This document shows, one piece after another, positions 1,404 through 49,378 of a DNA stretch of 64,000 nucleotides (positions within the stretch are counted from its first letter, which is position 1; every line of letters starts with the position of its first letter). The DNA lies in the NCBI GenBank assembly GCA_028720145.1, contig JAQYLJ010000067.1, positions 27,890 to 91,889 of the forward strand. The letters are read 5' to 3'. The stretch is from Clostridia bacterium. Its GTDB lineage: Bacteria; Bacillota; Clostridia; Oscillospirales; CAG-272. Below the pieces are notes generated by a model. That model worked only from the letters and a program-made list of their open reading frames with translations. It was not told where the DNA came from and ran no database searches. The position numbers and the translations under genes are program-made.

Positions 1404-2246
1404 ATGAGAAAAAATACGCGGGAACTCGTCAATATGCTCGCCGCCGCGGTATTCGTCCTGCTTCTGCTCTTTCTCGCGTGGGGCATCCATGCCTGTCGGA
1501 GCGAGACGGTCGCGCCCACGACCCCTACCCCCGTCGCACCCGCGGGGGAGACCGCCGTCGCGACCGACCCGCGTATCTCCTATGCGCTCCCGCCGCCGCA
1601 GGACGGACCTCTCTTTCTCGTCGCGTCCGACTGCCCGCAGAGCGATACGGAGCTCGCGGCGACCGCCGCCCGTCTCGTCCCCTGTGAGAGCGCGTCGGAC
1701 GAGGACGCGCTGTGGGTCACCCCGGGGGTCTTGATTCGACCCGAAGTGTTACTGCCGCTCGCGCGGCTCGCCCGCGGGTTCCGCACCGCGTTCCCATCGG
1801 GGGCACTCACCGTCACAGGAGGGTTTTGCTCGTCATCGGGTGTTGCCGATTCCACCGGCTTCGCCTTGACGCTCGCCGTGCGGACAGATGAGGGAGATAC
1901 GCCCATGACAGGCGAGACAAGGGAGGGAAAGTGGATGCTCCGACGGGCGGCGGACTACGGCTTCTTCAATTGTGATACCGACAACCCCGGTCGGCTCCTC
2001 TATATCGGGACACCCCATGCGCGTATCATGACCGACCACGGGCTTACGCCCGCCGCATATATCGCGTACATCAAGACCTTTTCGGAGAAGAACCCATTGA
2101 CAGATGCATCGTCCGACGGCACGCGCAAACTCTTTTTCCTCGCGGCGGACGCGGACGGCGCGGTCCTTTGGCTGCTCCCGGGAGTTCGGTTCACCTATAC
2201 CCCGGTCGACGGGGGCTATCTTGTGGTGGTATACGCGCAAAACTAA
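1404..2246 (+). CDS. membrane-anchored VanY/M15-like D,D-carboxypeptidase-fold protein; metal and catalytic motifs appear degenerate
   Basis: GGAGGGG RBS precedes the ATG, and there is an N-terminal TM (LAAAVFVLLLLFLAWGI). The C-terminal region follows the VanY pattern (GKWMLRRAADYGFFN; NPGRLLYIGTPHARIM). The SxHxxGxAxD and EPWH positions read ADSTGFALTL and NPGRLL. Confidence 0.5.
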   Translation: MRKNTRELVNMLAAAVFVLLLLFLAWGIHACRSETVAPTTPTPVAPAGETAVATDPRISYALPPPQDGPLFLVASDCPQSDTELAATAARLVPCESASDEDALWVTPGVLIRPEVLLPLARLARGFRTAFPSGALTVTGGFCSSSGVADSTGFALTLAVRTDEGDTPMTGETREGKWMLRRAADYGFFNCDTDNPGRLLYIGTPHARIMTDHGLTPAAYIAYIKTFSEKNPLTDASSDGTRKLFFLAADADGAVLWLLPGVRFTYTPVDGGYLVVVYAQN

Positions 2247-2480
2247 GTTTGCCCTTTCGGGCAAGTGAAGTTAACTTCGATGTGAAGTTCACTTCGTGAG
2301 TGAAGTTTCGCCGAGCGGCGAAGTGGGGGCAAACTGAACTTCACTGCGCGTGTTTGCGCGCAACTTCACTGTGTACGGCACAACTTCACTTTTGCGGAAG
2401 CAAAAATTTCACGAGCAAAGAAAGAGCAAACATACAAGAATGATTATCCTGTATATTTGCTCTTTCTGTTTTTGCTTCTC
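2247..2480. repeat. composite structured intergenic element, copy 1 (word-and-mini-hairpin array + 12-bp-stem/25-nt-loop hairpin)
   Basis: GTGAAGTT occurs at 2265, 2282 and 2300. AACTTCAC occurs at 2337, 2362 and 2382, with variant AATTTCAC at 2405. Unique perfect mini-hairpins sit between the words (2249-2264, 2307-2322, 2346-2361, 2371-2381, 2391-2404). The main hairpin is AGAAAGAGCAAA(2419-2430)/TTTGCTCTTTCT(2456-2467). Confidence 0.8.
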
Positions 2481-2502: not shown

Positions 2503-4404
2503 TTACTCCGCGAGGAGGTTACAGACCAGATCGGCGACCTCGGAGGGGTTATCGATCGTGAGACCCGAAATCAGGCACGCCTGCGCCCAGAGAATCTTCG
2601 CGACTTCCGCGAGTTTGGTCTGATTCGTCACATAAAGTGCTTTGATCTTTGCGGCGATGCTGTGGTCGCGGTTGATTTCGAGCACGGTCTGCGCCTTGAC
2701 ACTCCCGTCTCCGCCGGGCATTTTGGAGAGAACTTTCTCCATGCCGAGCGAGAGGTTCCCCTCGGTCGAGAGACAGACGGGGTGCGAGCCGAGCCCCGCC
2801 GTGAAGCGGACTTCGTGGACGGCATCTCCGATGCTGTCTTTGACGAATTTCAGAATTTCGGCGTTCTTCTCGTTCTCGTCTTTGAGGGCGGCTTTCTCTT
2901 CCTCGGTCGTCAGTCCGTCGGTGTCGGTGCAGACATTGGCGAACGCTTTGCCGCTATATTCGCGGAGCATTTGCAGAGCGAACTCGTCGACATCGTCGGT
3001 CAGGCACAGCACTTCATAGCCGTGTGCGACCGCCGCCTCGACCTGCGGGAGCAGACAAATCTTGTCGACCGTCTCGCCCGAGGCGAAGTAAATCTTGTCC
3101 TGTCCCTCCGCCATGCGGTCGACATACTCTTTCAGCGTGACATACTTCTTCTCTTTCGTGGAGATGAACAGCAAGAGGTCTTGGAGCGTGTCTTTGTGTG
3201 CGCCGTATTCCTCGTACACGCCGTATTTGAGTTGCAGTCCGAATGTGCGGAAGAACTCTTCATAGGCGTCCCGCTCGCCCTCGAGCATCTTTTTGAGCTC
3301 CGTGGTGATTTTGCGCTCGATGCCGCGCGCGATGGCGCGGAGCTGTCTGTCGTGCTGCAGGGTCTCGCGCGAGATATTGAGGGAGAGGTCGGCACTGTCG
3401 ACCAGCCCTTTGACGAACCCGAAGTAGTCGGGGAGCAGGTCTTTGCATTTCTCCATAATCATCACGCCGCTTGAATAGAGTTCGAGCCCCTTTTCGTAGT
3501 CGCGGCTGTAATAATCGTAGGGCGCGTGTTTCGGGATAAAGAGCAATGCTTCGTAGGTCGCCCCGCCCTCGGACTTCTGACGGATGACTTTCGCGGGAGA
3601 ATCGTAGTCGTAGAACTTCTCCTGATAGAAGGCGGCATATTCCTCGTCCTTGACCTCGCTCTGCGCGCGTTTCCAGATGGGGGTCATGCTGTTGAGGGTT
3701 CTGTCGCTCGTGACCGTTTCGTATTCGTCGGTCGAGCCCTCTTTCAGTTTCTCTTCGGTCACCTCCATCTTGATGGGGTAGCGGATGTAGTCGCTGTACT
3801 TCTTCACGAGTTCGGTGAGCTCATAGGTTTCGAGATACTCGCTGTACTTATCCTCGTCGGTATCGGGTTTGAGATAGAGCGTGATGGTGGTGCCGCGGGT
3901 CTCTTTCTCGGTCGGCTCCACCGTGTAGCCGTCGGTCCCCGTGGATTCCCACCGCCATGCTTCGTCCGCGTTCCACGCGCGGCTCTCCACGACCACTCGC
4001 TCTGCTACCATGAACGCAGAATAGAACCCGACCCCGAACTGTCCGATGATGTCGACGCCGTTCTTCTGCGCGTCCTCGTCTTTGCCCTCGTTCTCTTTGA
4101 AGGCGAGCGAGCCGCTCTTCGCGATGGTGCCGAGGTTGCTTTCCAGTTCGTCTTTCGTCATGCCGCAGCCGTTGTCCGAGATGGTCAGCGTCCGCGCCTC
4201 TTTGTCGGGAGCCAGACGGATAGAGAGGTCTTCCCGCGAGACGGTGAGGGAAGAGTCGGTCAGCGAGTGATAGTGCAGTTTGTCGCACGCGTCGCTCGCG
4301 TTGGAGATGAGCTCTCGGAGGAAGATCTCACGATGCGTATAGATGGAGTTGATCATCATGTCCAGGAGTTTTTTGGATTCGGTTTTGAACTGTTTTTTTG
4401 CCAT
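2503..4404 (-). CDS. htpG: molecular chaperone HtpG (Hsp90 family)
   Basis: 633 aa. The N-terminal GHKL ATPase signature is present (ETFQF-type start FKTESKKLLDMMINSIYTHREIFLRELISNASDACDKL, DNGCGMT, GQFGVGFYSAFMVA). Confidence 0.95.
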   Translation of the reverse strand: MAKKQFKTESKKLLDMMINSIYTHREIFLRELISNASDACDKLHYHSLTDSSLTVSREDLSIRLAPDKEARTLTISDNGCGMTKDELESNLGTIAKSGSLAFKENEGKDEDAQKNGVDIIGQFGVGFYSAFMVAERVVVESRAWNADEAWRWESTGTDGYTVEPTEKETRGTTITLYLKPDTDEDKYSEYLETYELTELVKKYSDYIRYPIKMEVTEEKLKEGSTDEYETVTSDRTLNSMTPIWKRAQSEVKDEEYAAFYQEKFYDYDSPAKVIRQKSEGGATYEALLFIPKHAPYDYYSRDYEKGLELYSSGVMIMEKCKDLLPDYFGFVKGLVDSADLSLNISRETLQHDRQLRAIARGIERKITTELKKMLEGERDAYEEFFRTFGLQLKYGVYEEYGAHKDTLQDLLLFISTKEKKYVTLKEYVDRMAEGQDKIYFASGETVDKICLLPQVEAAVAHGYEVLCLTDDVDEFALQMLREYSGKAFANVCTDTDGLTTEEEKAALKDENEKNAEILKFVKDSIGDAVHEVRFTAGLGSHPVCLSTEGNLSLGMEKVLSKMPGGDGSVKAQTVLEINRDHSIAAKIKALYVTNQTKLAEVAKILWAQACLISGLTIDNPSEVADLVCNLLAE

Positions 4405-4532: not shown

Positions 4533-5621
4533 TCAAGGGGCGATACTCTCCACCCCTGTGAGCTCTCGCACGCGGTCGAGCATCTTCCGATAGCGCTCGT
4601 TTGCGTCCGCGGCTTTCTTTTTGCGGGCGGGCAGGAGAAACCAACGAATGACCCAAAAGAGGGGGAGCAGCGGCGGGAAACACCGCACCGCTTTAAATTC
4701 TCTCCGCATCACGCGGAAAGAGGGGAAAATACGACGGAAAAGACTTGCGTGGGGCGTCTCGCTCCCCGCGAGACCATTTCCGCCTCCGTTCGCGGCAATG
4801 TAACTGCCGAGTAGAATCGTGTCATTGGTCGCCGGCATATCGCCGAACCAGACCTCCGAGAGGTCGAACATACAACGGGCGAAGTTCGAGATGCCGCGCG
4901 CGGCAAACCAGTCGTCGAGCACGGGAATATCCGCTTCGTCGAGCTTCTGTCTGCACATATAGAGGTCGAGCAGGGAACGAATCCCAATCCCCGTGTCCGA
5001 GGAAAAGTTGCGGTGCATGAGCGACATCTGATAGGCGTAGAGAGCAGTCGGAGAGAAAGAATAGGAGATACCGTCCGTCGTGACGAGGGAGTCCCACGGG
5101 GTCTCGCCACCGTTGATCAGGTCCCCGTCGGAGAGAGAATACCGAATTTCGATCTTGACCTGATCAAGCAGATACAGGTCATGCTCCTCCCGGTTCACCC
5201 GACGGAATCCCATGTCTTCGATGAGAGCAGCGACTTCTTCCCGTTTCTCTAAAGCGACAAGAATGTTTAGGTCCTGCGAGGTGCGCCAGTTGGGTTGCGG
5301 GTACTGCGCGCGGAGACAATACCCCTGCAAGGGCATATGGGGAATCTCCCGCTCGGTAAAGAGTCGAAACAGCGCGTCCGCATAGTGGTCGAGGCGAATC
5401 TGTTTCCCGACCGCCTCGAAGTAGGCGGACTCCACCTGTTTGACGATATGCTCGGGGCGATTCGGCATCTCCGAGAGCGCACGGTGGACAAACCCCATGA
5501 GGCGGTGCCCCGCAGCAAGGGGGATTAAGCTGTCCCAATGAATATGTGCGGGGAGGGATTCTTTTCGCAACGCATGGCGTATGACGGCGATGAGTTCCAG
5601 ATATGTCTGTCGTCTTTCCAT
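4533..5621 (-). CDS. uncharacterised nucleotidyltransferase-family protein (NTP_transf_5-like)
   Basis: 362-aa ORF. The pattern LQGYCLRAQYPQPNWRTSQDLNILV resembles the KG..YP.p..R..DiDlLV core of this family. Assigned by eye only. Confidence 0.5.
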   Translation of the reverse strand: MERRQTYLELIAVIRHALRKESLPAHIHWDSLIPLAAGHRLMGFVHRALSEMPNRPEHIVKQVESAYFEAVGKQIRLDHYADALFRLFTEREIPHMPLQGYCLRAQYPQPNWRTSQDLNILVALEKREEVAALIEDMGFRRVNREEHDLYLLDQVKIEIRYSLSDGDLINGGETPWDSLVTTDGISYSFSPTALYAYQMSLMHRNFSSDTGIGIRSLLDLYMCRQKLDEADIPVLDDWFAARGISNFARCMFDLSEVWFGDMPATNDTILLGSYIAANGGGNGLAGSETPHASLFRRIFPSFRVMRREFKAVRCFPPLLPLFWVIRWFLLPARKKKAADANERYRKMLDRVRELTGVESIAP

Positions 5622-7761: not shown

Positions 7762-8031
7762 ATGACGAGCCGCAGTGTAAAAGTCACCAATACGATCGGA
7801 CTGCACGCCAGTCCCGCCGCTTTTTTTATTCATGAAGCGTGCTCTTTCAAGAGCAGCATTTGGGTGGAAAAGGGAGACAGGAAAGCGAATGCCAAGAGCT
7901 TGATGAGCGTTTTGTCTCTTTGCGCGCGCCAAGGGGAAGAGCTTCTGCTCACCGCTGACGGCGAGGATGAGAAGACGGCGCTCGACGCTTTGGAAGACCT
8001 GCTTCTGCACCGCCTGAACGCCATGGCATAA
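7762..8031 (+). CDS. ptsH: HPr-family phosphocarrier protein
   Basis: His15 context is IGLHASPA and Ser46 context is NAKSLMSVLSL. The ATG at 7762 has a GAGGAG RBS about 7 nt upstream. The GTG at 7729 in the ORF track is probably not the start. Confidence 0.85.
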   Translation: MTSRSVKVTNTIGLHASPAAFFIHEACSFKSSIWVEKGDRKANAKSLMSVLSLCARQGEELLLTADGEDEKTALDALEDLLLHRLNAMA

Positions 8032-8187
8032 CGGTCGCTTCGCCACGCGTAGAGACGGCGGAGACACATTCCCCGATTCGTTTGGAATCGACCTGCCCCC
8101 GAGGGATACCGAAGAAGAAAACTGCTTTTTCGGAACGAACCTCGGGGACTGTTTTTTTGTGTTCGCCTGTTTTTAGCGTCCCCCTGT

Positions 8188-8247: not shown

Positions 8248-10077
8248 ATGAATCCGCATCTGACGGAGTTGCGCCGAAAGGCGGCGGCACTCCCGCTCTG
8301 CCCCGGGGTCTATCTCATGAAAGACAAGGACGGGGTAATCATCTATGTCGGGAAGTCGCGGAAACTCAAAAATCGGGTGAGTTCCTATTTTCAGTCCGAC
8401 CGAAAAACCTATAAGACCGAGAAGATGGTTTCCCATGTCGCGGACTTTGACTACATCCTCTGCGACGGGGAGATGGAAGCCCTGACCCTCGAAAACACGC
8501 TGATTAAGAAATACACCCCGCGCTACAATATCCGTCTCAAAGACGCGAAGTCCTATCCCTATATCAAAGTGACCGCCGAGGACTATCCGCGGGTGGTGGT
8601 GACGCGGGAGCGAAAAGCCGACAGAGGGCGCTATTTCGGACCCTATTCCTCATCCGCCGCGGCGCATGAAGTCGCGGACACCGTGACGCGCATCTTCTCT
8701 CTGCCGACCTGCCGCCGCGTGTTTCCGCGGGACATCGGGCGTGAGCGCCCCTGCCTGTACGCGCAGATGAAGCGGTGTGTCGCCCCCTGCACGGGCGGGG
8801 TCACGCCCGACCGCTACCGTGCCCTGATTCGCGCCGCGGAAGGGGTGCTCGCGGGGAATCTAAGGGAGACCCGCGCGTCTCTCACCGCTTCGATGACCGA
8901 GGCGGCGGAGAGGGAACAGTTTGAACTTGCTGCCCATTACCGCGACTGCCTCGCCGCCCTGACCCGCCTCTCGGAGAAACAGAAAGTGGTGGGGGACGCG
9001 GACGAGAATCGCGATGTTCTCGCGCTCTGGCAGGACGACCTTTGCTCGGTGCTCGCGGTTTTGTCGGTAAGAGACGGGAAACTGCATGAGAAGCGGGAAT
9101 ATCTGCTCACCGATAACGCCCTCGAAGGCGAGGATTACTCGTCTCTCGTTTCCGCGTTTTACGAGACTCCCGACACGGTGCCGCCCGAGGTGCTGGTGTC
9201 CTTTGAAGAGGACGAGGAGACCGAGGGGGTGCTCTCACGGTATCTCTCCGAGCTTTCCGGACACCGCGTTGAGGTACGCACCCCGAAGAAGGGGAAGCTG
9301 AAAGCCCTCGTCGACATGGCGATGACCAACGCGAAAGAGCGCGCGGACCGCTACCGCGCCGAGACCGAGACCGAGGAAAAAGTGTTGGTGTCCCTCGCAC
9401 GCCTTTTGGGTCTGGAGGTGGTCCCCTCGCGCATTGAGGTGTACGATATCTCCGAAATCGGAGAGGAGTATATCACCGCAGGCATGATTGTCACGCGCGG
9501 CACCTCACTTCTCAGGAGCGATTATCGCACTTTTCGGATGAAGACCCTCACGGGGGTGGACGACTATGCCGCCATGCGGGAGACTCTCTCGCGTCGGCTC
9601 GCCCATATCGGGGACGGCAGTCCGTCGCTCGGGGAAATCCCCGACCTCATTCTTCTCGACGGAGGAGTCGGACAGGTGAATGCGGTCAAGGGGATTCTGG
9701 ACGGTTTTTCGGTAAAACCCCCCGTCTTTGGGCTGGTAAAAGACGATTTTCACAAGACAAGAGCGATTACCGACGGGGAGCGGGAGCTATCCATCGCGCG
9801 GGAACAAGAGGTCTATGTCTTTCTCTACCGCTTACAGGAAGAGGTACACCGCGTGGCGGTACGCGCCACAATGGGGGCGAAGCGCAAGACCCTGAAACGC
9901 TCTGCGCTCGAAGCCGTGCCGGGCATCGGACCCGCGAAGGCGAAGAGTATACTCGCCAAGATGAAGTTCTCATCTCTGAAAACCGCCTCGGTCGACGAGA
10001 TGGTGAAGGCGGGCATCGGAGAAAAGGACGCGGCACGCGTCTATGCGTATTATCATAAGGAGGACACCGCGCGATGA
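8248..10077 (+). CDS. uvrC: excinuclease ABC subunit C
   Basis: GIY-YIG N-terminus (PGVYLMKDKDGVIIYVGKSRKLKNRVSSYF), UVR domain, and C-terminal (HhH)2 (LEAVPGIGPAKAKSIL). The start is set at the ATG after GAGGAGGGAG. The track start at 8188 falls inside the predicted promoter. Confidence 0.93.
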   Translation: MNPHLTELRRKAAALPLCPGVYLMKDKDGVIIYVGKSRKLKNRVSSYFQSDRKTYKTEKMVSHVADFDYILCDGEMEALTLENTLIKKYTPRYNIRLKDAKSYPYIKVTAEDYPRVVVTRERKADRGRYFGPYSSSAAAHEVADTVTRIFSLPTCRRVFPRDIGRERPCLYAQMKRCVAPCTGGVTPDRYRALIRAAEGVLAGNLRETRASLTASMTEAAEREQFELAAHYRDCLAALTRLSEKQKVVGDADENRDVLALWQDDLCSVLAVLSVRDGKLHEKREYLLTDNALEGEDYSSLVSAFYETPDTVPPEVLVSFEEDEETEGVLSRYLSELSGHRVEVRTPKKGKLKALVDMAMTNAKERADRYRAETETEEKVLVSLARLLGLEVVPSRIEVYDISEIGEEYITAGMIVTRGTSLLRSDYRTFRMKTLTGVDDYAAMRETLSRRLAHIGDGSPSLGEIPDLILLDGGVGQVNAVKGILDGFSVKPPVFGLVKDDFHKTRAITDGERELSIAREQEVYVFLYRLQEEVHRVAVRATMGAKRKTLKRSALEAVPGIGPAKAKSILAKMKFSSLKTASVDEMVKAGIGEKDAARVYAYYHKEDTAR

Positions 10078-28684: not shown

Positions 28685-28830
28685 TTTTTTGATTGTTTTT
28701 GTTTGCATAGAAAAATCGCCCTCCGCGAATGAGTAATACTCTTTACGGAAAAATTGAAAAACCAACTATGTGCGAGTGCCGCATTTGAAAGGTCAAATGC
28801 AAATTGGGTAAGTACCCCCCTTATATAAGC

Positions 28831-29097
28831 AGAAAGAGCAAGAGTAAAAGGATAAATACCTTCTATTCTTGCTCTGTTCGTTTTGTAATGAATTGATGCT
28901 TACGCATCATGAATTGGCGTGCGCCATGATTTCTCGTCTGCGTACCGCTTCCTCCATGAATTGAATTGCAACCCATGTGCCGAAGGCACAATTCATGCCG
29001 AAGGCAATTCATGAAAGCATTTCTTTCAATTCATGCAACCGTAAGGTTGCAATTCATTGCGTGTTCTCCGTTAAGGATAACACGCGAAACGGAGGGC
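28831..29097. repeat. composite structured intergenic element, copy 2 (inverted orientation relative to copy 1, different word)
   Basis: The main hairpin is AGAAAGAGCAAG(28831-28842)/CTTGCTCTGTTC(28868-28879) with a 25-nt loop containing AGGATAA. ATGAATTG occurs at 28888, 28909 and 28956. CAATTCAT occurs at 28989, 29005, 29027 and 29050. Mini-hairpins separate the words (e.g. GCAACC-gtaa-GGTTGC at 29035-29050). Confidence 0.8.
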
Positions 29098-29123
29098 GTT
29101 CTTTATTGGGTTTTATTCGGTCG

Positions 29124-32470: not shown

Positions 32471-32692
32471 GAAATCGGCGCGAAAAGCGCGAAAAGAGAG
32501 AAAGAGATGCCGCACGGGCAGGTCTCGGCGGGGTGCGTGGCGCGCGAAAAGCAAATGAAAGGCAGAGGGGATAAAAGAGGGAGTCCCGCGCCGACTTTCG
32601 GGAAAAGTCGGGAAAGCGCGGAAAAAGCCGGCTCTCTTTCCGATAATTAAGAAAAATCCTGTATTTCTCTTGAAAAAATCGCGTGCGCGTAC

Positions 32693-38359: not shown

Positions 38360-38412
38360 TTGGCAAGAAAGAATTTTATTATATAATTTGTATATACCAA
38401 TAATTTGGTATA
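38360..38412 (+). promoter_or_regulatory. promoter of the LRR lipoprotein gene plus a palindromic operator candidate
   Basis: TTGGCA-16-TATAAT (38360-38387), followed by the perfect palindrome TATACCAA-taat-TTGGTATA (38393-38412). It sits in the divergent region shared with the XRE regulator. Confidence 0.5.
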
Positions 38413-38434
38413 CAATTCAATCTTTTGGAGGATT

Positions 38435-39592
38435 ATGATGAAAAAGAGCATTTTCAGACTGACGACAATTCTATTACTGTGCGCGCTCTGTGCGTTACTT
38501 CTGGCCTTTTCCGGATGCGAGGACGAATCAACGAGTGATTCAAGAATACCAAGCACCTCGGACACATCCGGTACAACGAAAAAACCATCAAATAGCGGAA
38601 GCTCTAATACGGCCGACAAACCATCAAATAGCGGAAGTTCCGATACGACCGACAAACCATCGAACAGCGGAAGTTCCAATACGACCGAGAAACCATCGAA
38701 TGAAGAGTCATCCTTCTTCATCATGACGGGTCAGACATTGTCCGGGCTGACAGATGCGGGGAAAAAGCAAACTTCCATTGTAATACCAAGTAAAATCGAC
38801 GGAGTAACGGTTACGGCAATCGGAAGATCGGTATTTCAATACTGCTATTACTTAACCTCGGTTTCCATTCCGAGTAGTGTGACAAGTATTGGAAACTACG
38901 CGTTTTTTCATTGTGAATCACTAAAATCAATTGCAGTTCCAAGTAGCGTAAAGACGATTGGAGAAGACGCATTTTCTTTTTGTTCGGCAATGACATCAAT
39001 AACATTAGTGAACGGAGTCACCGGTATTGGTGAGAGAGCATTCTCTGGATGCAGCAGTCTGAAATCTGTTACCATTCCCGACAGCGTGACCAACATAGGG
39101 GGGAGTGCTTTTTATGGGTGTACCGCAATCAAGCAGGCAACAATGCCAACGATTGCGATTTCCAGTGTTCCGAAAGATTAATTAGAGACGGTGGTACTGA
39201 ATGGCGGGTCAAGCATCCCCAACTTCGCATTTCAATATTGCAGTACATTGAAATCAGTACAAATCCCCGGCACCGTGACGAGCATCGGCATGTTCGCGTT
39301 TGACTATTGCAAAGGATTGACCTCCGTGACCATTCCCGACAGCGTAACAGAAATCGGTGCACACGCGTTCTTTAATTGTTTCGGTCTCACAAGCGTGAAG
39401 ATCGGAAAAGGCGTGAAGAGTATTGGAGGTTACGCATTTAGCGGTTGTAGCAAATTGACATCCGTAACCTTTGCTAACCCGACTGGATGGAAAGCAGGGG
39501 GTACAGCAATGGATGTCAGTGATCCGGCAAAGGCGGCGGCGTATCTGGTTCCCGGATATCCGTATGGGAGCTATGAATGGACTCGCGGATAA
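38435..39592 (+). pseudogene. BspA-type leucine-rich-repeat (LRR_5-like) lipoprotein gene interrupted by an in-frame TAA at 39179-39181
   Basis: Signal peptide plus lipobox (LLCALCALLLAFSGC), then 3.6 tandem copies of KPSNSGSSNT(A/T)(D/E), then LRR units (SVTSIGNYAFFHCESLKSI...). ORFs 38405-39181 and 39191-39592 are in the same frame. The repeat pattern continues straight across the stop (…ISSVPKD*LETVVLNGGSSIPNFAFQYCSTLKSV…). Confidence 0.7.
38582..38713 (+). repeat. 36-bp coding tandem repeat (about 3.6 copies; KPSNSGSSNTAD units) in the LRR lipoprotein linker
   Basis: The units are 38582-38617, 38618-38653 and 38654-38689, plus a partial fourth. Confidence 0.85.
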
Positions 39593-43231: not shown

Positions 43232-46200
43232 ATGATTGCAAAAACAAACGGAAAATGGAAAGGCATCCTCGGCATGACGCTCATGCTCGCCTGCGTGCTA
43301 TGCCTGACCTTGGTATTGGTGTTTCTGGTACCCGGGACGAAGGCGAGCGCGGCTGCGCCTGTCCGACCGGATGGCAGTTTCACCAATATCAGCAATAGTT
43401 ACGACGCTACAAACTATATGAGTAATGTGTACGGCGGCGAGTATAATTACCTATTGACCGAAGACGGTATTCAGATGAATGCCAATATGGTCATAGCAGA
43501 CCACGCTGTCGTCAACCTGTGCCTGAATGGGCATGATTTGAATTTCGCGTCGGGATATAACATTCAAATCATCGACGGCGTTCTGAATATCTTTGACAGC
43601 GGCAGCGTCAAATCGTTATACGGCGTAGATACCGGAGAGGGTACGGGTGAGGGCACCGAGTTGCTTCCCGTGTTTATCAACGGGTATAACGGTACGCTCA
43701 ATGTCGTCGGCAGCACGGTAGATTCGCTGGGCCCCGTTACGGTCGGCATCTACGGCAGCGTCGGCGTATATGGCGGCGGTAAAATTATCAACAGTTCGCT
43801 CGGCGAGTCCGAAAGCCCCACGGTTAGCAAAGGGATTGCAATCAGTCTTTCGTCCGGCGCCGGCAATCTGACTCTTTCGGACGGGGCAACAATCGGCTAT
43901 TTGTGCGGCGGCGGCACGATCAATGCAAACGGCTATGGGGGCACGGTCAATATTCTGCCGCACGGCGTCTCCACTTTCAAAAATATTTCCGCAGAGAATA
44001 TCAATATGATAGACTCCTCCGGCAATTATTTTATGGAAACGAGCGGCGACGACATTGTGATTACAGCCAATGTAACCTATACGGTCGTTCTGAAAAATGC
44101 CAAACTTGACGAGAGATTCTACGAGACTTCTTTGCTCACGGCCGAGGGCTCGGGCGTTGTGATCACCGAAAACGAATATAACGGCTATAATATCGTACAG
44201 TCGTTTAAGGCAGGCACCGGCACATTCAAGGAATTGATCGTAACGGTAAAAGACGGATACCTTCTGCCCGCGTACTTTGAAGAACAGGCAGGGATTGAAG
44301 ACCCGTATGTATTGGCGTCCGGCTATCAGGGTTTGAAGTTGACCCGCAGCGGGAACTCTTTGTATGTCCGTTGCTCGAATTGGACCGGCGATACGGATAT
44401 AACGGTCAGCGTAGCCGGAACCGAACCTGCCGAAGGCGATGTCGTGTGCGACGGTATCAAGTTTACCACGCCCATCAATCAGTCAGGGGCATGCACCCAG
44501 GGCAGTGGATATGCGGGCGATTGGGGTTCTTCTTATACGGGTCCGGACGGTTCGTTTTCGATACTCAACATGTGCGTCACCTCGACAATGAGTCTCTATC
44601 TGGAAGAAGATGTCGTGATGTTTACGCACGGAAGTATCGGTTCGTCCGGCGATTATACGGCAGAGTATCCTCCCGAGAACATCACGGTAGACCTGTATCT
44701 CAACGGGCATACGCTCACACTGTACGGTTCGGGTGGTGACTCGGCAGGTATCACGGTCTATCCCAATGCGTCATTCAATATTTATGACAGCGCAGCCGGA
44801 ACCGGCAAGATCGTTTTGGAATCGCAAGACGATTCGCAGTATGATTCCGGATTGCTTGATAATCTTTGCGTGCTGGCTGTAAAGGGCGGTACGGTCAATC
44901 TGTACGGCGGTACGCTTTCGGGTTATTTTGAAGCGGTACGATTGGAGCCCTCTGCCAAATATACCCAGACCACCTCGCAGGACGAACTGGGGAATACGAT
45001 TACCACCAAAAAATACAGCACGACCACATTCAGAATGTTCGGCGGAGAACTCAACATTAAGTACACGAAGTATGCAGTCAATATCGTAGCGGCGCTGTAT
45101 GCATCGCAGGATATCACCTATGAGGAAAATGTTATACACAATTTCGCCGCGCACGACATTAAGATTTACGGCGACAGCAAACTGACCGGCGTGATTTCGA
45201 CCACGCAAGATACCGACCTCAACTTCGACGCATACGGTTTCACCGGCGATGCGATCAGCATTCGGGCAAACAAGGCAAGAGAAGGCGAAGTGCTTTGCCG
45301 CCATACGACTGCGAATAAAATCAATTTCGTAAACAAGGGCTTCACCGCCATTGACGACGAAGTGAATGAGGGGAATGTCATCGTGAAGCCCGCGATGGAA
45401 ATCAGTCTCATCCCGGACGAGCACAGCGTGTTCTCCAACGGCTCGGAAAGCGGTATCACCTCGTTCGGCGCTTTGCAGGGGAAGACGCTCGCAGAGGCGG
45501 GACTCCAACTCGTAGCCGACGCCGGATATGAGGCGAAAGAGTACATTTATCAGGCGATCATCGTCGGCGTTGCCGCAGGCGACGACTTCACGGTTCTCCT
45601 GCTCAGCGACGGCTCACTCTGGGCTTGCGGCGGGAACGAATTCGGTCAACTCGGCAACAAGTCTTTCGAGGGTTCCTCCGCTTTCATCCCCATGCAGACC
45701 GAAAGCGGCGCGATTAAGGGCGTCTCGGCAGTCTATGCCAAAGGTCAGATGGTAGTTGCGCGCATGAACGATCAATCTACGATGGCTTGCGGCGACAACA
45801 CCTACGGACAACTCGGCGTGAACAGCACCGAAACGAAGGTCAACTACTTTATGCCTATGGTAGATGCCGAAGGAAAAACGCTTTCCAATGTTGTAAATGT
45901 TTACATGGGTGGCAACCACACCTTCGTACAGAATTTCAACTCGGATACGAGGATATATGATCTCTACGCCTGCGGTAAAAACGACCACGGACAATTAGGT
46001 ATCGGCTCGACGGAAGACAAAAACATTTTAATCAAGGTCACCGTGAGCGAAGGTATTACCGATTATTTCAGTGTCGAGTGCGGCGTGGATTTCACCGTCT
46101 TCAATACATATTGGAACCACAGTTTTATTACCTTTATGGCGGGTAACGGTGCTTTCCTCAGTACCCTGAACGGACATATCTATTCGAGCGGGGATTGGAA

Positions 46201-49200
46201 CTATACCGACATCAATTTGCAGATTACCTCGCAAGACTATACCACACCAACCCAGTTATGTGATGATCCCTACCAGCAAGTACGATTCCGTGTTGGCGAC
46301 GGGTTTATACTGGCGTTTGTGTTTGACTCAATGAATGAGTATAAACTTTTGGCGATGGGCGACAACTCCAAGGGGCAGTGCGGTAACTACGGAGGCGGCA
46401 CGATCAATTCGTTCTCGCCTATGAAAGACGCAAACAATAATGATGTTACGGGCGTTCGCGACATCTATATCGGCAAAGATTTCGTCGTCGTCTTCAAGTT
46501 CGACGGCTCGGTATGGGTGTGCGGTAACAACGAAAACGGACAACTCGGTATCAATAGTTCCGAACCCATTGTCTATGTGCTCACGCAGGTCGCGCAAAAC
46601 CTGGACAACTACTCGAAGTGGGCGGTCGGCGGCAGCCACCTCGTCGCGCTCAAAAACGACGGATCGTTCTATGTTACGGGTAGCAACGCGGCAGGTCAGC
46701 TCGGTTTCGATTCTTCTGTCGGAAAGAAGATGGTTCTCACCGAAAGAAAACTCACAGAAGCGCAACTCACCGCCACTTCGCTCGCAGACATTACCGCAGA
46801 CTTCAACATGGATTTGAGGGTGGTAACCGGACTGCTTGAATTCAACATCAACATGAACGCAAACACCGGCGATCCTGCGGACGACAAGGTAGCAAAAACC
46901 CAACTCCATAAACTCTATGTGAAGGATTTGCCCGACCCCGAATGGGACGAGTTCCACACCTTTGTGGGCTGGTTCACGGCGGCAGAGGGTGGCGAAGCGG
47001 TCACCGACCGGACCCTGACCGAAGACATCGAGATCTTCGCGCATTGGACTCTGAACTATAAGATTACTCTTGACGCGCAGGGCGGTTCGACTTCTTCCGC
47101 ATATCTCGTCACGAAGGACGGGAAACTCACGACCCTTCCCAACGCGAAATACGATGCTTCGCATCTGTTCTTCGCCTGGTACACCGAGAAGAACGGCGGC
47201 GGGGAAGAGGTCACGCTCGATACCGTGTTCACCGCGGACACCACGATTTATGCAAGTTACATCACCGTGGGCAAGACGATTGACCGTATCGAAAAGACGA
47301 CCGAAGGACTTGTCGATACCTATACCATCTATTATACCGACGACACGACTTACTCCTTTACCGTCACCAACGGTTCGAGCGGTTCGGGCAGCGGCTCCAG
47401 CGAAGCGCCTTCTATCGGCGAGAACGGCAACTGGTGGATTGGCGAAACCGATACGGGTGTGAGCGCGAGCGGTACGGACGGTGCGGACGGCGCAGACGGG
47501 AAGACCCCGCAACTCCGCATCAATTCCGAGACGAATATGTGGGAAGTCTCCTACAACGAGGGTTCCACTTGGACCTCGCTCGGCGTGAAAGCGACGGGTG
47601 CCGCAGGCGCAGATGGTGCTGACGGCAACAGCATCGAAAAGGTCGAAAAGATCAGTACCGAAGGGCTGGTCGATACATACCGCATCACCTTCACCGACGG
47701 CTCGACCTTCGACTTCACGGTGACGAACGGTGCTGACGGCACGGACGGCACAAACGGCAAGAAACTGGAAATGCAGATCAATGCCGAGACCAACGAGTGG
47801 GAGTACCGCTATGAGGGCGATACCGAATGGACTTCCACCGGCGTGAAAGCGACCGGCGCGAACGGCTCCGACGGTGCAGACGGGAAGACCCCGCAACTCA
47901 AAATCGGCGAGGACAACTACTGGTATGTATCCTATGACGACGGTGCGACCTGGACGAGCCTGAATGTCAAGGCGACAGGCGAAAAGGGTGCGGACGGCAC
48001 GGACGGCGTGACCCCGCAGCTCCGTATCAATTCTTCTACGAACTATTGGGAAGTGTCGTACGATAACGGCACGAGCTGGAACTCTCTCGGCGTGAAGGCG
48101 ACGGGTGAGGGTGCGGGCTCGGGCTCAGGCACCGACGGCATCACTCCCAAACTCCGTGTGAACGCGGAAACCAATGAGTGGGAAGTCTCCTACGACAACG
48201 GCACGACCTGGGAATCCCTCGGCGTGAAAGCGACCGGCTCTGACGGCGCAGACGGTGCCGATGGTGCAGACGGCAAGAAGATTATCATTCGCATTAACCC
48301 GACCACGGGCGAGTGGGAGTATCAGTACGAGGGCGACACCGAATGGACATCTCTCGGTGTGAAAGCCACCGGCGAAAAGGGTGAACAAGGCGAAAAGGGT
48401 GAAGACGGCAGAGGCATCGTCAAGATTGAAAAGACGAGCACAAGCGGTCTCATCGACACTTACACCATCACCTACACCGATGGCACGACTTCGACCTTCA
48501 CTGTGACGAACGGTCAAGGTGGTGCGAACGGCGCAGATGGCGCGGACGGCGAAGACGGTATCACCCCGCACATTGGCGCGAACGGCAACTGGTTCATCGG
48601 TGAAACCGATACCGGTGTCAAGGCGGTCGGTACCAATGGTACCAACGGCGCAGACGGTGCCGATGGTGCAGACGGCAAGAAGATTATCATTCGCATTAAC
48701 CCGACCACGGGCGAGTGGGAGTATCAGTACGAGGGCAACAGCGAATGGACCTCTCTCGGCGTGAAAGCCACCGGCGAAAAGGGTGAACAAGGCGAAAAGG
48801 GTGAACAGGGTGAAAAAGGCGAACAGGGTGAAAAAGGTGAGCAAGGAGAAAAGGGTGATACCGGTGAAAAAGGCGACGCCGGCAGAGGCATCGTTAAGAT
48901 CGAAAAGACCGGCACTCAGGGTCTGATTGACACCTACACCATCACCTACACCGACGGCACGACCACGACCTTCACCGTGACGAACGGTTCCGACGGCGGC
49001 AGCGGCAGTAACGGTGCCTACGGTGGCAACCCCTTCACGGGTTCCAACGGCAACTGGTGGATCGGCTCGACCGATACGGGCGTGAGCGCGGGCGGCGGTG
49101 TCGATGGAGCGACTCCGCAGTTCCGCGTCAATGCCGATACAAAGGAATGGGAAGTGTCGAACGATAACGGCACGACCTGGCTCTCTCTCGGCGTGAAAGT

Positions 49201-49378
49201 CATTGAACAACAGGTCGGGGAGAATGGTGAAAACACCACGCTCGCGACGACCGTCGGCTGTTCCGCGGCACTCGTGGCAGTGGTCATCGCCATCGTCATC
49301 ACCATTCTCGCCATTCGCGATAAGAAACGGATGCAGAAAGTTCTGGACTCCATGAAGAACGGCGAGGATAAAGAATGA
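43232..49378 (+). CDS. giant (2048 aa) mosaic cell-surface protein: signal peptide, beta-helix-like region, RCC1 repeats, Listeria-Bacteroides (Flg_new-like) repeats, collagen-like G-X-Y linkers alternating with three short module types, C-terminal TM anchor
   Basis: GGAGG RBS and signal peptide (LMLACVLCLTLVLVFLV…ASA). Six or seven RCC1 signatures are present (GGNEFGQLG, GDNTYGQLG, GKNDHGQLG, GDNSKGQCG, GNNENGQLG, GSNAAGQLG) at about 45560-46720. Two HxFxGW(F/Y)T…W units lie at about 46955-47260. Repeated modules span 47279-49200. The TM is AALVAVVIAIVITILAI, followed by a basic tail. Confidence 0.9.
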   Translation: MIAKTNGKWKGILGMTLMLACVLCLTLVLVFLVPGTKASAAAPVRPDGSFTNISNSYDATNYMSNVYGGEYNYLLTEDGIQMNANMVIADHAVVNLCLNGHDLNFASGYNIQIIDGVLNIFDSGSVKSLYGVDTGEGTGEGTELLPVFINGYNGTLNVVGSTVDSLGPVTVGIYGSVGVYGGGKIINSSLGESESPTVSKGIAISLSSGAGNLTLSDGATIGYLCGGGTINANGYGGTVNILPHGVSTFKNISAENINMIDSSGNYFMETSGDDIVITANVTYTVVLKNAKLDERFYETSLLTAEGSGVVITENEYNGYNIVQSFKAGTGTFKELIVTVKDGYLLPAYFEEQAGIEDPYVLASGYQGLKLTRSGNSLYVRCSNWTGDTDITVSVAGTEPAEGDVVCDGIKFTTPINQSGACTQGSGYAGDWGSSYTGPDGSFSILNMCVTSTMSLYLEEDVVMFTHGSIGSSGDYTAEYPPENITVDLYLNGHTLTLYGSGGDSAGITVYPNASFNIYDSAAGTGKIVLESQDDSQYDSGLLDNLCVLAVKGGTVNLYGGTLSGYFEAVRLEPSAKYTQTTSQDELGNTITTKKYSTTTFRMFGGELNIKYTKYAVNIVAALYASQDITYEENVIHNFAAHDIKIYGDSKLTGVISTTQDTDLNFDAYGFTGDAISIRANKAREGEVLCRHTTANKINFVNKGFTAIDDEVNEGNVIVKPAMEISLIPDEHSVFSNGSESGITSFGALQGKTLAEAGLQLVADAGYEAKEYIYQAIIVGVAAGDDFTVLLLSDGSLWACGGNEFGQLGNKSFEGSSAFIPMQTESGAIKGVSAVYAKGQMVVARMNDQSTMACGDNTYGQLGVNSTETKVNYFMPMVDAEGKTLSNVVNVYMGGNHTFVQNFNSDTRIYDLYACGKNDHGQLGIGSTEDKNILIKVTVSEGITDYFSVECGVDFTVFNTYWNHSFITFMAGNGAFLSTLNGHIYSSGDWNYTDINLQITSQDYTTPTQLCDDPYQQVRFRVGDGFILAFVFDSMNEYKLLAMGDNSKGQCGNYGGGTINSFSPMKDANNNDVTGVRDIYIGKDFVVVFKFDGSVWVCGNNENGQLGINSSEPIVYVLTQVAQNLDNYSKWAVGGSHLVALKNDGSFYVTGSNAAGQLGFDSSVGKKMVLTERKLTEAQLTATSLADITADFNMDLRVVTGLLEFNINMNANTGDPADDKVAKTQLHKLYVKDLPDPEWDEFHTFVGWFTAAEGGEAVTDRTLTEDIEIFAHWTLNYKITLDAQGGSTSSAYLVTKDGKLTTLPNAKYDASHLFFAWYTEKNGGGEEVTLDTVFTADTTIYASYITVGKTIDRIEKTTEGLVDTYTIYYTDDTTYSFTVTNGSSGSGSGSSEAPSIGENGNWWIGETDTGVSASGTDGADGADGKTPQLRINSETNMWEVSYNEGSTWTSLGVKATGAAGADGADGNSIEKVEKISTEGLVDTYRITFTDGSTFDFTVTNGADGTDGTNGKKLEMQINAETNEWEYRYEGDTEWTSTGVKATGANGSDGADGKTPQLKIGEDNYWYVSYDDGATWTSLNVKATGEKGADGTDGVTPQLRINSSTNYWEVSYDNGTSWNSLGVKATGEGAGSGSGTDGITPKLRVNAETNEWEVSYDNGTTWESLGVKATGSDGADGADGADGKKIIIRINPTTGEWEYQYEGDTEWTSLGVKATGEKGEQGEKGEDGRGIVKIEKTSTSGLIDTYTITYTDGTTSTFTVTNGQGGANGADGADGEDGITPHIGANGNWFIGETDTGVKAVGTNGTNGADGADGADGKKIIIRINPTTGEWEYQYEGNSEWTSLGVKATGEKGEQGEKGEQGEKGEQGEKGEQGEKGDTGEKGDAGRGIVKIEKTGTQGLIDTYTITYTDGTTTTFTVTNGSDGGSGSNGAYGGNPFTGSNGNWWIGSTDTGVSAGGGVDGATPQFRVNADTKEWEVSNDNGTTWLSLGVKVIEQQVGENGENTTLATTVGCSAALVAVVIAIVITILAIRDKKRMQKVLDSMKNGEDKE
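48773..48889 (+). repeat. collagen-like G-X-Y tract (13 triplets, mostly GEK/GEQ; 18-bp tandem unit) inside the giant gene
   Basis: GEKGEQGEKGEQGEKGEQGEKGEQGEKGDTGEKGDAGRG. The paralogous position at about 48371-48415 has only 5 triplets. Confidence 0.9.

Follow-up and report, generated by a model that had tools for sequence, protein, structure and literature searches.

The 64 000-nucleotide stretch of a Clostridia bacterium genome considered here (contig JAQYLJ010000067.1 of assembly GCA_028720145.1; the window) contains, between two convergent genes, an array of identical 8 nt words separated by short hairpins, and the question that it raises is whether such an array is an RNA gene, a set of protein-binding sites, an elaborate terminator or a piece of mobile DNA. 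An earlier note, made from the sequence alone, had drawn attention to this array (copy 1) and attributed it to selection for structure in RNA or single-stranded DNA (ssDNA). We favour the reading, to which we assign a probability of about 0.55, that copy 1 belongs to a dispersed, non-coding and modular foldback repeat of gut Clostridia and some phages, similar in kind to miniature inverted-repeat transposable elements (MITEs) and to the REPINs of the repetitive extragenic palindromic (REP) sequences. Coordinates are positions within the window unless tied to an L-numbered locus.

Architecture of copy 1

Copy 1 takes up most of the gap at 2247–2502 between the gene for a hypothetical protein of 280 aa (1404–2246, plus strand) and htpG (2503–4404, minus strand). 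As the earlier note described, an 8-mer, GTGAAGTT, is reiterated at 2265, 2282 and 2300 on the plus strand and is followed by its complement, AACTTCAC, at 2337, 2362 and 2382; these are six of the eight occurrences of the word or its complement in the whole window, where 1.3 are expected and none of 100 shuffles reaches eight. The note's count of three or four reverse words was accurate, since the fourth, at 2405–2412, has decayed in the window (AATTTCAC) and is exact in the sister strain L127, and the mini-hairpins that it listed (TTGCCC-tttc-GGGCAA, TTCGCC-gagc-GGCGAA, GCGCG-tgtttg-CGCGC and TTTGC-ggaa-GCAAA) are all perfect. The spacing of the words is irregular (17, 18, 37, 25 and 20 bp).

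The array begins with a terminal hairpin, AAGTTTGCCC-tttc-GGGCAA (2245..2264, plus strand), which includes the TAA stop codon (2244–2246) of the 280 aa gene; an array end of the form ...GGGCAAACTTAGTT is kept in all arrays of the same word class, which we call class 2. The forward arm follows (2265..2307, plus strand), with three copies of GTGAAGTT and two short spacers, the palindrome GAAGTTAACTTC and CAC-ttc-GTG, and then a centre (2308..2336, plus strand) in which the hairpin TTCGCC-gagc-GGCGAA precedes a segment X, GGGGGCAAACTG, the partner of 2245–2254. The reverse arm (2337..2412, plus strand) consists of three copies of AACTTCAC and the degenerate AATTTCAC, set apart by the hairpins GCGCG/CGCGC, GTG-tacgg-CAC and TTTTGC-ggaa-GCAAAA. 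A long-range pairing of 9–10 bp between 2246–2254 and 2327–2335, absent from the earlier note, can close the forward-word arm, and the 5' part of the terminal hairpin can alternatively pair with 2327–2335. The adjacent 12 bp stem with a 25 nt loop (2419–2430 with 2456–2467) is present as reported and extends inward to give 21 nt arms that are 90 % complementary around a 7 nt loop; it lies in the H module (2414..2474), a long AT-rich hairpin with A-tract and T-tract flanks that reads CAGAAAGAGCAA...AGGATAA...TTGCTCTTTCTG on the minus strand. Array and H together span 2238..2474, and the copy 1 region folds far better than shuffled sequences on both strands (z=−7.4 and −9.4). The search for promoter-like sites returned none.

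A dispersed and modular repeat

A k-mer cluster scan of the window revealed one other such array, at 28888–29058 and in the opposite orientation to copy 1. This copy 2 is a complete composite of 355 bp (28730..29084, plus strand), made up of a U module (28730–28830), the same H hairpin as in copy 1 (CAGAAAGAGCAA..AGGATAA..TTGCTCT, 28833–28881) preceding the array, an array of three ATGAATTG and four CAATTCAT words (28888–29058), and a T hairpin (29059–29085). A scan for the H hairpin, with one genome taken per species, yielded at least 118 loci, nearly all in metagenome-assembled genomes (MAGs) of Clostridia, Eubacteriales, Christensenellaceae and Oscillospiraceae and, among the matches listed, from sheep, goat, deer, yak and human gut. 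A bidirectional word array follows H, on the AGGATAA strand, in 48 of 108 H copies among those matches, 28 of them with ATGAATTG (class 1), 12 with TCGATATG (class 3) and eight with GTGAAGTT (class 2). The relatives of copy 1 thus form at least three well-sampled word classes, to which rarer ones with GTGATAT, GTGAAAT, ATGAAATC or CGCGATAT are to be added, and a core of GA[AT]NT is common to all of them.

The layout is constant across the classes: H and a T-rich tract, three or four forward words with hairpins between them, X, three reverse words each preceded by a hairpin, x-loop-X', and often T. X is a class-specific segment of 10–12 nt, with a matching X' in each class; the T hairpin, GCGTGTTCTCC-GTTAA-GGATAACACGC, often stands at the array end, and U, of about 100 nt, is frequently found upstream of H, so that U-H-array-T is a recurrent order. 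The elements are 240–390 bp long and non-coding. The same words also form arrays that lack U, H and T, both on other metagenome contigs (L137, L197, L199, L203, L205, L230 and L234) and on two phage contigs; the array is therefore an independent module, and its words spread together as a set.

The two phage contigs are L292 and L347. In L292 there are two arrays of class 2 (3845–4055 and 7848–8058), mutually inverted and 3.8 kb apart, one after the portal gene and the other after a head-module gene, while L347 (arrays at 4733–4904 and 9594–9729) has a class 1 array after the large terminase gene and class 3 and class 2 half-arrays before the portal gene. Both contigs encode terminase, portal and Gp15-like proteins, and their arrays lie between genes of the packaging and head module; L292 also has a match to the GP20-b RNA (RF03003) at 4684–4743. 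A looser, three-word pattern with flexible gaps, run against metagenome and viral collections, returned about 300 loci, mostly chance matches or coding repeats, with about 10 true arrays among them, and BLAST searches of cultured phage and plasmid collections gave no match.

Several variants of the modules were seen in passing. The T hairpin exists in two forms that are exact reverse complements, GTGTTCTCC-GTTAA-GGATAACAC in the majority and GTGTTATCC-TTAAC-GGAGAACAC in about six copies (sites of these forms include window 29059–29085 and L004, L030, L062, L091, L106 and L119), as if template switching or a local inversion had turned this near-palindrome around with respect to the array. An extra hairpin is nested in the loop of a mini-hairpin in L024 and L026 (first spacer, class 1) and in L016, L031, L045 and L050 (class 3), as in atgc[catttgc-ttcg-caaatatc]gcat compared with the usual atgc-tgac-gcat, a miniature version of the way in which the complete element has entered a terminator loop. 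In L205 (1400–1700) a class 2 array without U, H and T has a full copy of a terminator hairpin (aaaaGCGCTCCCGCaGGAGCGCtttttt) on each side, the terminator being duplicated whole rather than split.

Insertion in and at terminators

The behaviour of the element is best seen at copy 2, downstream of pheA. A search with PheA homologues led to an Eubacteriales MAG (L120; GCA_051889175.1, contig JBJFCY010000002.1) whose PheA is 99 % identical to that of the window, and in which pheA is followed by an intact terminator, aaaagaaCGCCCTCCG-TTTCG-CGGAGGGCGattttt, with both flanks orthologous to those of the window. The window holds the 355 bp element inside the loop of that terminator, with TTCG (CGAA on the plus strand) on each side: the 5' half of the host stem (CGCCCTCCG) and the first CGAA lie at 28717..28729, and the second CGAA, an A and the 3' half of the stem (CGGAGGGCG) at 29085..29098, both on the plus strand. 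Copy 2 is a presence/absence polymorphism at a terminator loop relative to this sister genome. Nor is the site exceptional, as 14 of 21 other full-length copies are flanked by GC stem halves of unique sequence, with an A-tract before and a T-tract after, and these are host terminators that the element has split. A small, non-coding and dispersed element with a duplication and an empty site at copy 2 has several attributes of a MITE, and the ends of the composite form an imperfect inverted repeat, GCGTGATGTTCTTAGCGGAGAA...TTCTCCGTTAAGGATAACACGC, in which 18 of 22 positions match when reverse-complemented (the ends are also given as GCGTGATG...ACACGC); this repeat is diverged in copy 2 and absent from copy 1, and the array arms are inverted repeats by construction. 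The earlier note had regarded the match to a described repeat or MITE class as fatal to its proposal, and the insertion into terminators brings the element close to such a class; the note's other concern, that there might be no further copies, is removed by the second copy in the window and the dozens in relatives.

Two further features of pheA-downstream regions may be recorded. The L120 contig stops 271 bp beyond pheA, and since several other loci end at or inside the element (e.g. L009, L081 and L230), these repeats may break MAG assemblies. In L124 (4108–4662), L125 (4108–5092) and L126 (4108–4852), which encode identical PheA proteins 71 % identical to that of the window, the spacers downstream of pheA measure 556, 986 and 746 bp and contain another modular repeat, whose units include caggcaaacaaacggtttctccgat and cgggtacacaag; this is a separate family, whose copy number varies and which occupies a comparable site.

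Copy 1 has a different history. Strains in which the flanking protein is 95 % identical keep the array, and relatives at 90 % and 86 % identity have an array-free spacer of 110 bp with a canonical bidirectional terminator, aaaaaaaGCCCCGAGCC-attc-GGCTCGGGGtt. The flanks of copy 1 are shared by L131 and L132–L134, the common sequence stopping at ...gtggtggtata and resuming at cttctctttgac..., and the plain terminator that the relatives have between these common flanks indicates that copy 1 replaced the terminator region, which amounts to 90 bp in those relatives. The C-terminal residues of the 280 aa protein have been rewritten from ...VVVYTP* to ...VVVYAQN*, and it is the conserved array end AACTAAGTTTGCCC that provides the stop codon. 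Copy 1 is thus also present or absent among relatives, without a target duplication, and it stands in for an ancestral bidirectional terminator.

These locations invite the view that the element is a bidirectional terminator, insulator or REP-like stabilizer of 3' ends that the host has adopted, in which use rather than mobility keeps the pairing. Of 34 copies, 18 are placed between convergent genes and 32 adjoin the 3' end of a gene; H occupies the position of the ancestral terminator at copy 1, and the array there is kept in the strains with 95 % identity. H itself looks like a bidirectional terminator: its 21 bp stem is followed by TGTTTTTGCTT on the plus strand and preceded by an A-tract, and its flanks, over the H copies among the matches listed, are 55 % A upstream and 58 % T downstream. 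The stem is AT-rich, whereas an intrinsic terminator has a G+C-rich stem with a U-tract directly after it. A consensus terminator scan, however, called neither H nor the array, a preference for inserting into terminators explains the locations equally well, and a simple hairpin would suffice for termination, which leaves the word arrays and their classes without explanation. We consider adoption by the host to be rather improbable; it is compatible with a mobile repeat rather than excluding one.

Conservation of structure and the relationship to Gut-1

Pairing is kept while sequence varies, as the earlier note proposed. When 12 class 2 arrays taken from different organisms are compared, the four local hairpins show 89 % pairing, which falls to 11–45 % if the partners are slid by one to three columns; six or seven pairs change on both sides, only one one-sided change is seen among the covarying pairs, and none of 500 column shuffles matches the covariation score. 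The helix between X and X' is 96.6 % paired across the 12 arrays, with one compensatory change from G-C to A-T (in L137), and its use in place of the terminal hairpin gives similar covariation numbers. The note's suggestion that forward and reverse words could zip into a long branched stem corresponds to the thermodynamic consensus of RNAalifold (−36 kcal/mol); covariation is silent on this zipper, the words being invariant.

The array is a below-threshold relative of a known RNA family, which the earlier note had not recognized. At gathering thresholds Rfam has no match in the window, but when the whole window was searched in E-value mode against 4227 Rfam families the only matches were to Gut-1 (RF01706), at both arrays. 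Copy 1 matches at 2240–2311 on the plus strand (38.4 bits, E=6e-4) and copy 2 at 28969–29059 on the minus strand (29.3 bits, E=0.12), both below the gathering score of 50 bits, and there is a weaker match at the reverse arm of copy 1 (2358–2414, minus strand, 25.1 bits). The forward arm and the preceding 2240–2264 make up the main matching stretch, over which positions 1–77 of the 77 in the model are aligned, hairpin 2 being weak. Gut-1 is described as three hairpins separated by GUGAAAU and is typed by Rfam as a gene for a small RNA (sRNA); the 43 original examples all came from human gut metagenomes and no function was proposed (Weinberg et al., 2010, Genome Biol 11:R31, PMC2864571). Copy 1 has three variable hairpins parted by a UGAAAU-type word, with GUGAAGUU replacing GUGAAAU, and nearly all the loci among the matches listed come, like Gut-1, from uncultured gut-derived bacteria. 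Homologous arrays exceed 50 bits in L116 (54.5, of the same word class as copy 1) and L008 (57.3, a GTGAAAT array), although most arrays of classes 1–3 score below the cut-off.

The flanks in the original Gut-1 Stockholm alignment show the same inverted-word architecture: three GUGAUAU words are followed by four AUAUCAC words, again with intervening hairpins; the arm covered by the model is enclosed by a closing helix, AUAUUCGCC...GGCGAAUAU, and preceded by a terminator hairpin, and an outer inverted repeat brackets the whole. Copy 1 is therefore a below-threshold variant of this known orphan motif, and, as its flanks hold a second inverted arm and a closing helix, Gut-1 as modelled is half of a larger unit. 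The unit described here differs from Gut-1 in its words, GTGAAGTT, ATGAATTG and TCGATATG instead of GTGAAAT or GTGATAT, in being about twice the size of the model, with two inverted arms and a closing helix, and in often lying within a U-H-array-T composite with insertion polymorphism; the family description mentions none of these features. We found no later paper on Gut-1 in the literature searched.

RNA or DNA

If Rfam's classification is taken at face value, the array would be a structured non-coding RNA in which the arm closed by X folds into a domain of several hairpins and offers single-stranded GUGAAGUU words for binding by a protein or a second RNA, with the other arm as partner or antisense regulator. 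The match to the Gut-1 covariance model, the covariation with its much lower values for slid partners, the strong folding z-scores and the many loops that are GNRA or UUCG-like are all consistent with this, as are the words in the joints between hairpins and the sense-word half-arrays in the 5' leader of the portal gene in phage L347. Protein-sponge RNAs such as CsrB and RsmZ likewise hold their words in joints between hairpins. Other observations are harder to reconcile with an sRNA. No promoter-like site was found; in tandem gene pairs the orientation relative to the neighbours is random, with seven arrays co-oriented and seven anti-oriented; the same architecture on both strands leaves the RNA strand undefined; and copies of the element interrupt terminators and can be missing from one of two almost identical strains.

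The hairpins themselves were also compared. Spacers were read on the strand on which the neighbouring word is antisense, so that the strand read differs between the arms, top in one and bottom in the other. Of 120 distinct spacers 109 form a hairpin, compared with 40 of 120 after shuffling, and their pairs comprise 493 Watson–Crick, six G-T and no A-C, a wobble share of 6/499. Selected RNA helices normally keep a sizeable share of G-U pairs and favour GNRA or UNCG loops, and so few wobbles would be unusual for them; the six G-T against no A-C are suggestive as to strand, not decisive, and the consensus stem of H, with one G-T and one A-C, is uninformative on that point. Of 57 triloops 30 are GNA and two TNC, and of 37 tetraloops 28 are GNNA and none TNNC; only 13 of the 28 are GNRA, about half being of other types, and GNA triloops dominate their size class. 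The closing pair is C-G in 89 of the 109 spacer hairpins, and the rules for loop and closing pair hold on the antisense-word strand of both arms. Since this strand-specific rule flips between the arms, the favoured strand of each runs 5' to 3' outward from the centre. Triloops of the type c(GNA)g and tetraloops of the type c(GNNA)g reportedly form the extra-stable DNA mini-hairpins studied by Hirao, Yoshizawa, Bevilacqua and colleagues.

As far as sequence statistics can speak to it, the loops and wobbles, the random orientation and the lack of a promoter-like site lead us to lean towards an ssDNA or orientation-free foldback over a strand-specific sRNA, and we regard the sRNA as unlikely. RNA or ssDNA was the right pair of alternatives for the earlier note to offer, but the hairpins cannot be taken by themselves to mark an RNA gene, given that they belong to a dispersed insertion whose presence in terminators is polymorphic.

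The invariance of the words, when everything between them changes, might also suggest that they are read in duplex DNA, as a centromere-like or parS-like array, or one for a nucleoid-associated or phage packaging protein, on which the direct-then-inverted order would load oligomers symmetrically. That order is kept across classes with the core GA[AT]NT, and the phage arrays adjoin terminase and portal genes; GTGAAAT and GTGAAGTT also bear what we take to be a resemblance to P1 parS box A and to the chromosomal parS half-site GTGAAAC, a lead rather than a test. Against a duplex target stand the irregular spacing, which differs between copies, the several word classes with tens of copies per genome, some of them inside terminators, and the inheritance of consistently degenerate words as such; compensatory changes and a strand-specific loop rule would make no sense for duplex binding. 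We therefore consider this explanation very improbable.

Other candidates were set aside more readily. A CRISPR-like array does not fit words of only 8 nt at irregular spacing, iterons of a replication origin do not fit many copies per genome and several word classes, and small peptides encoded in ATGAATTGA words do not fit the other classes, which have no start codon.

The case against a mobile repeat, and the search for a mobilizer

A number of points weigh against the mobile foldback repeat that we prefer. Weinberg et al. (PMC2864571) rated Gut-1 as certainly RNA on the strength of covariation, and as probably not cis-regulatory. The argument for DNA consists of loop and wobble statistics together with general rules of stability for d(cGNAg) and d(cGNNAg) mini-hairpins. 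The 4 bp duplication is known from a single filled and empty pair; junction repeats elsewhere (CATT, ATAA and TAT) fit a duplication of 3–4 bp and are ambiguous with the terminal repeat. Copy 1 is a replacement and not a clean insertion, with a polarity inferred without an outgroup. No transposase was found among the open reading frames (ORFs) of the window that were checked, and no RAYT in the window or in the 8 kb loci; no gene family recurs beside the element in a clustering of 895 ORFs from the 118 listed loci, the clusters being only common paralogue families (ABC, MATE, P-type ATPase, LRR and AraC). Nor was an autonomous version seen, in which arms or inverted terminal repeats surround a gene, and none of the end-module pairs surrounds a gene that could be a transposase; the one T-T module pair at 1.2 kb, in L075, considered as such an element, encloses ordinary genes for Fur and rubrerythrin. 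Finally, use by a host or phage factor could account for the exact words kept across species and phages.

Relation to known repeats

The foldback repeat has partial counterparts among known systems. It shares with the REP, BIME and REPIN elements of Proteobacteria, which are mobilized by RAYT, a Y1 HUH transposase, an extragenic location at gene 3' ends, inverted units, hairpins in ssDNA or RNA, compensatory changes, a short conserved single-stranded word beside a hairpin and the lack of a gene linked in cis. In REP, however, the hairpin is conserved and the word is GTAG, whereas here an 8 nt word is conserved and the hairpins vary, and the units run three in one direction and then three in the other rather than alternating; there is no conserved imperfect palindrome of 20–40 nt with a 5' GTAG, the word being an 8-mer with the core GA[AT]NT. 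The Correia/NEMIS, ERIC and RUP elements, MITEs with terminators as cargo or target, and IS1397 and ISKpn1, which insert in the loops of REP palindromes, are comparable in being small, non-coding and dispersed in many copies, in duplicating a short target, in inserting within the loop of a hairpin outside genes and, if the ends of the composite are read as such, in having imperfect terminal inverted repeats, but here the targets are ordinary intrinsic terminators, and word-and-hairpin arrays have no counterpart in those elements. The BOX elements of Streptococcus pneumoniae are similarly intergenic, non-coding and highly structured, with modules in variable combinations and copy numbers, although the modules are unrelated in sequence and BOX has neither inverted word arrays nor a documented insertion into terminator loops. 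Eukaryotic foldback (FB) transposons have long inverted-repeat arms of short tandem units, and the whole element snaps back, but they are kilobase-sized and without mini-hairpins between the units, so that the analogy is one of architecture only.

Other repeats and genes of the window

The presence of pnp, mfd, pheA, PFOR and uvrC among the surrounding genes identifies the window as bacterial chromosome. A 36 nt tandem repeat at 38582–38701 (3.3 copies, 89 % matches) was considered as part of a type III toxin–antitoxin system and rejected: it lies inside an ORF (38405–39181) with BspA-type leucine-rich repeats and is thus a coding repeat. A 9 nt periodic repeat at 48776–48882, GAAAAGGGT and variants in 10 or more copies, lies in an ORF of 2048 aa (43232–49378) and corresponds to a collagen-like Gly-X-Y stretch. 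In a long non-coding leader upstream of PFOR (start at 32801), GCGCGAAAAG occurs three times (32478, 32487 and 32542) within 32478–32560.

A model for the foldback repeat and its implications

We propose that the core module is a foldback array of two inverted arms, each of three or four identical 8 nt words between short perfect hairpins, one of the arms being closed by a long-range helix of 9–12 bp. The modules U, H, array and T would be mobile, or would recently have been so, in the form of small non-autonomous elements whose landing sites lie within or beside intrinsic terminators. The words may serve as the invariant part of the arms for recognition or pairing, presented between hairpins that would form in ssDNA, and the functional strand of each arm would run 5' to 3' outward from the centre; an enzyme acting in trans would presumably mobilize the element. 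Because the element folds back and carries an H with A/T flanks, its insertion into a terminator may well be tolerated, and at copy 1 H now probably ends the convergent transcripts of both the 280 aa gene and htpG.

A bolder form of this model, speculative and rather unlikely in our view, is that Gut-1-type arrays are the Firmicute counterpart of REPINs on ssDNA, with words shown, on the strand that leads outward from the centre of the array, beside extra-stable c(GNA)g or c(GNNA)g DNA mini-hairpins, and that a word-specific enzyme for each class, HUH-type or other, copies or moves the arrays into the loops, then single-stranded, of extruded terminator hairpins in bacteria and phages. Were it true, both the class of mobile DNA and the mode of target choice would be new, and a 15-year-old orphan 'RNA' motif would gain a function.

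Rfam has listed Gut-1 since 2010 as an orphan 'sRNA', with gut metagenomes as its only source. To this the present analysis adds that the model covers half of a two-armed foldback unit with a closing helix, that at least three further word classes are missed by it, that the unit belongs to a modular element with a documented empty site in a terminator loop, and that the hairpins look more DNA-like than RNA-like. No new category is opened by these findings; rather, an orphan Rfam family is reframed, and insertion into terminator loops gains a concrete example that can be tested. If confirmed, they would move Gut-1 from the RNA genes to the mobile repeats, explain the MAG contig breaks in these lineages, offer a marker of strain-level variation, and point to an enzyme that recognizes words next to hairpins and targets terminators.

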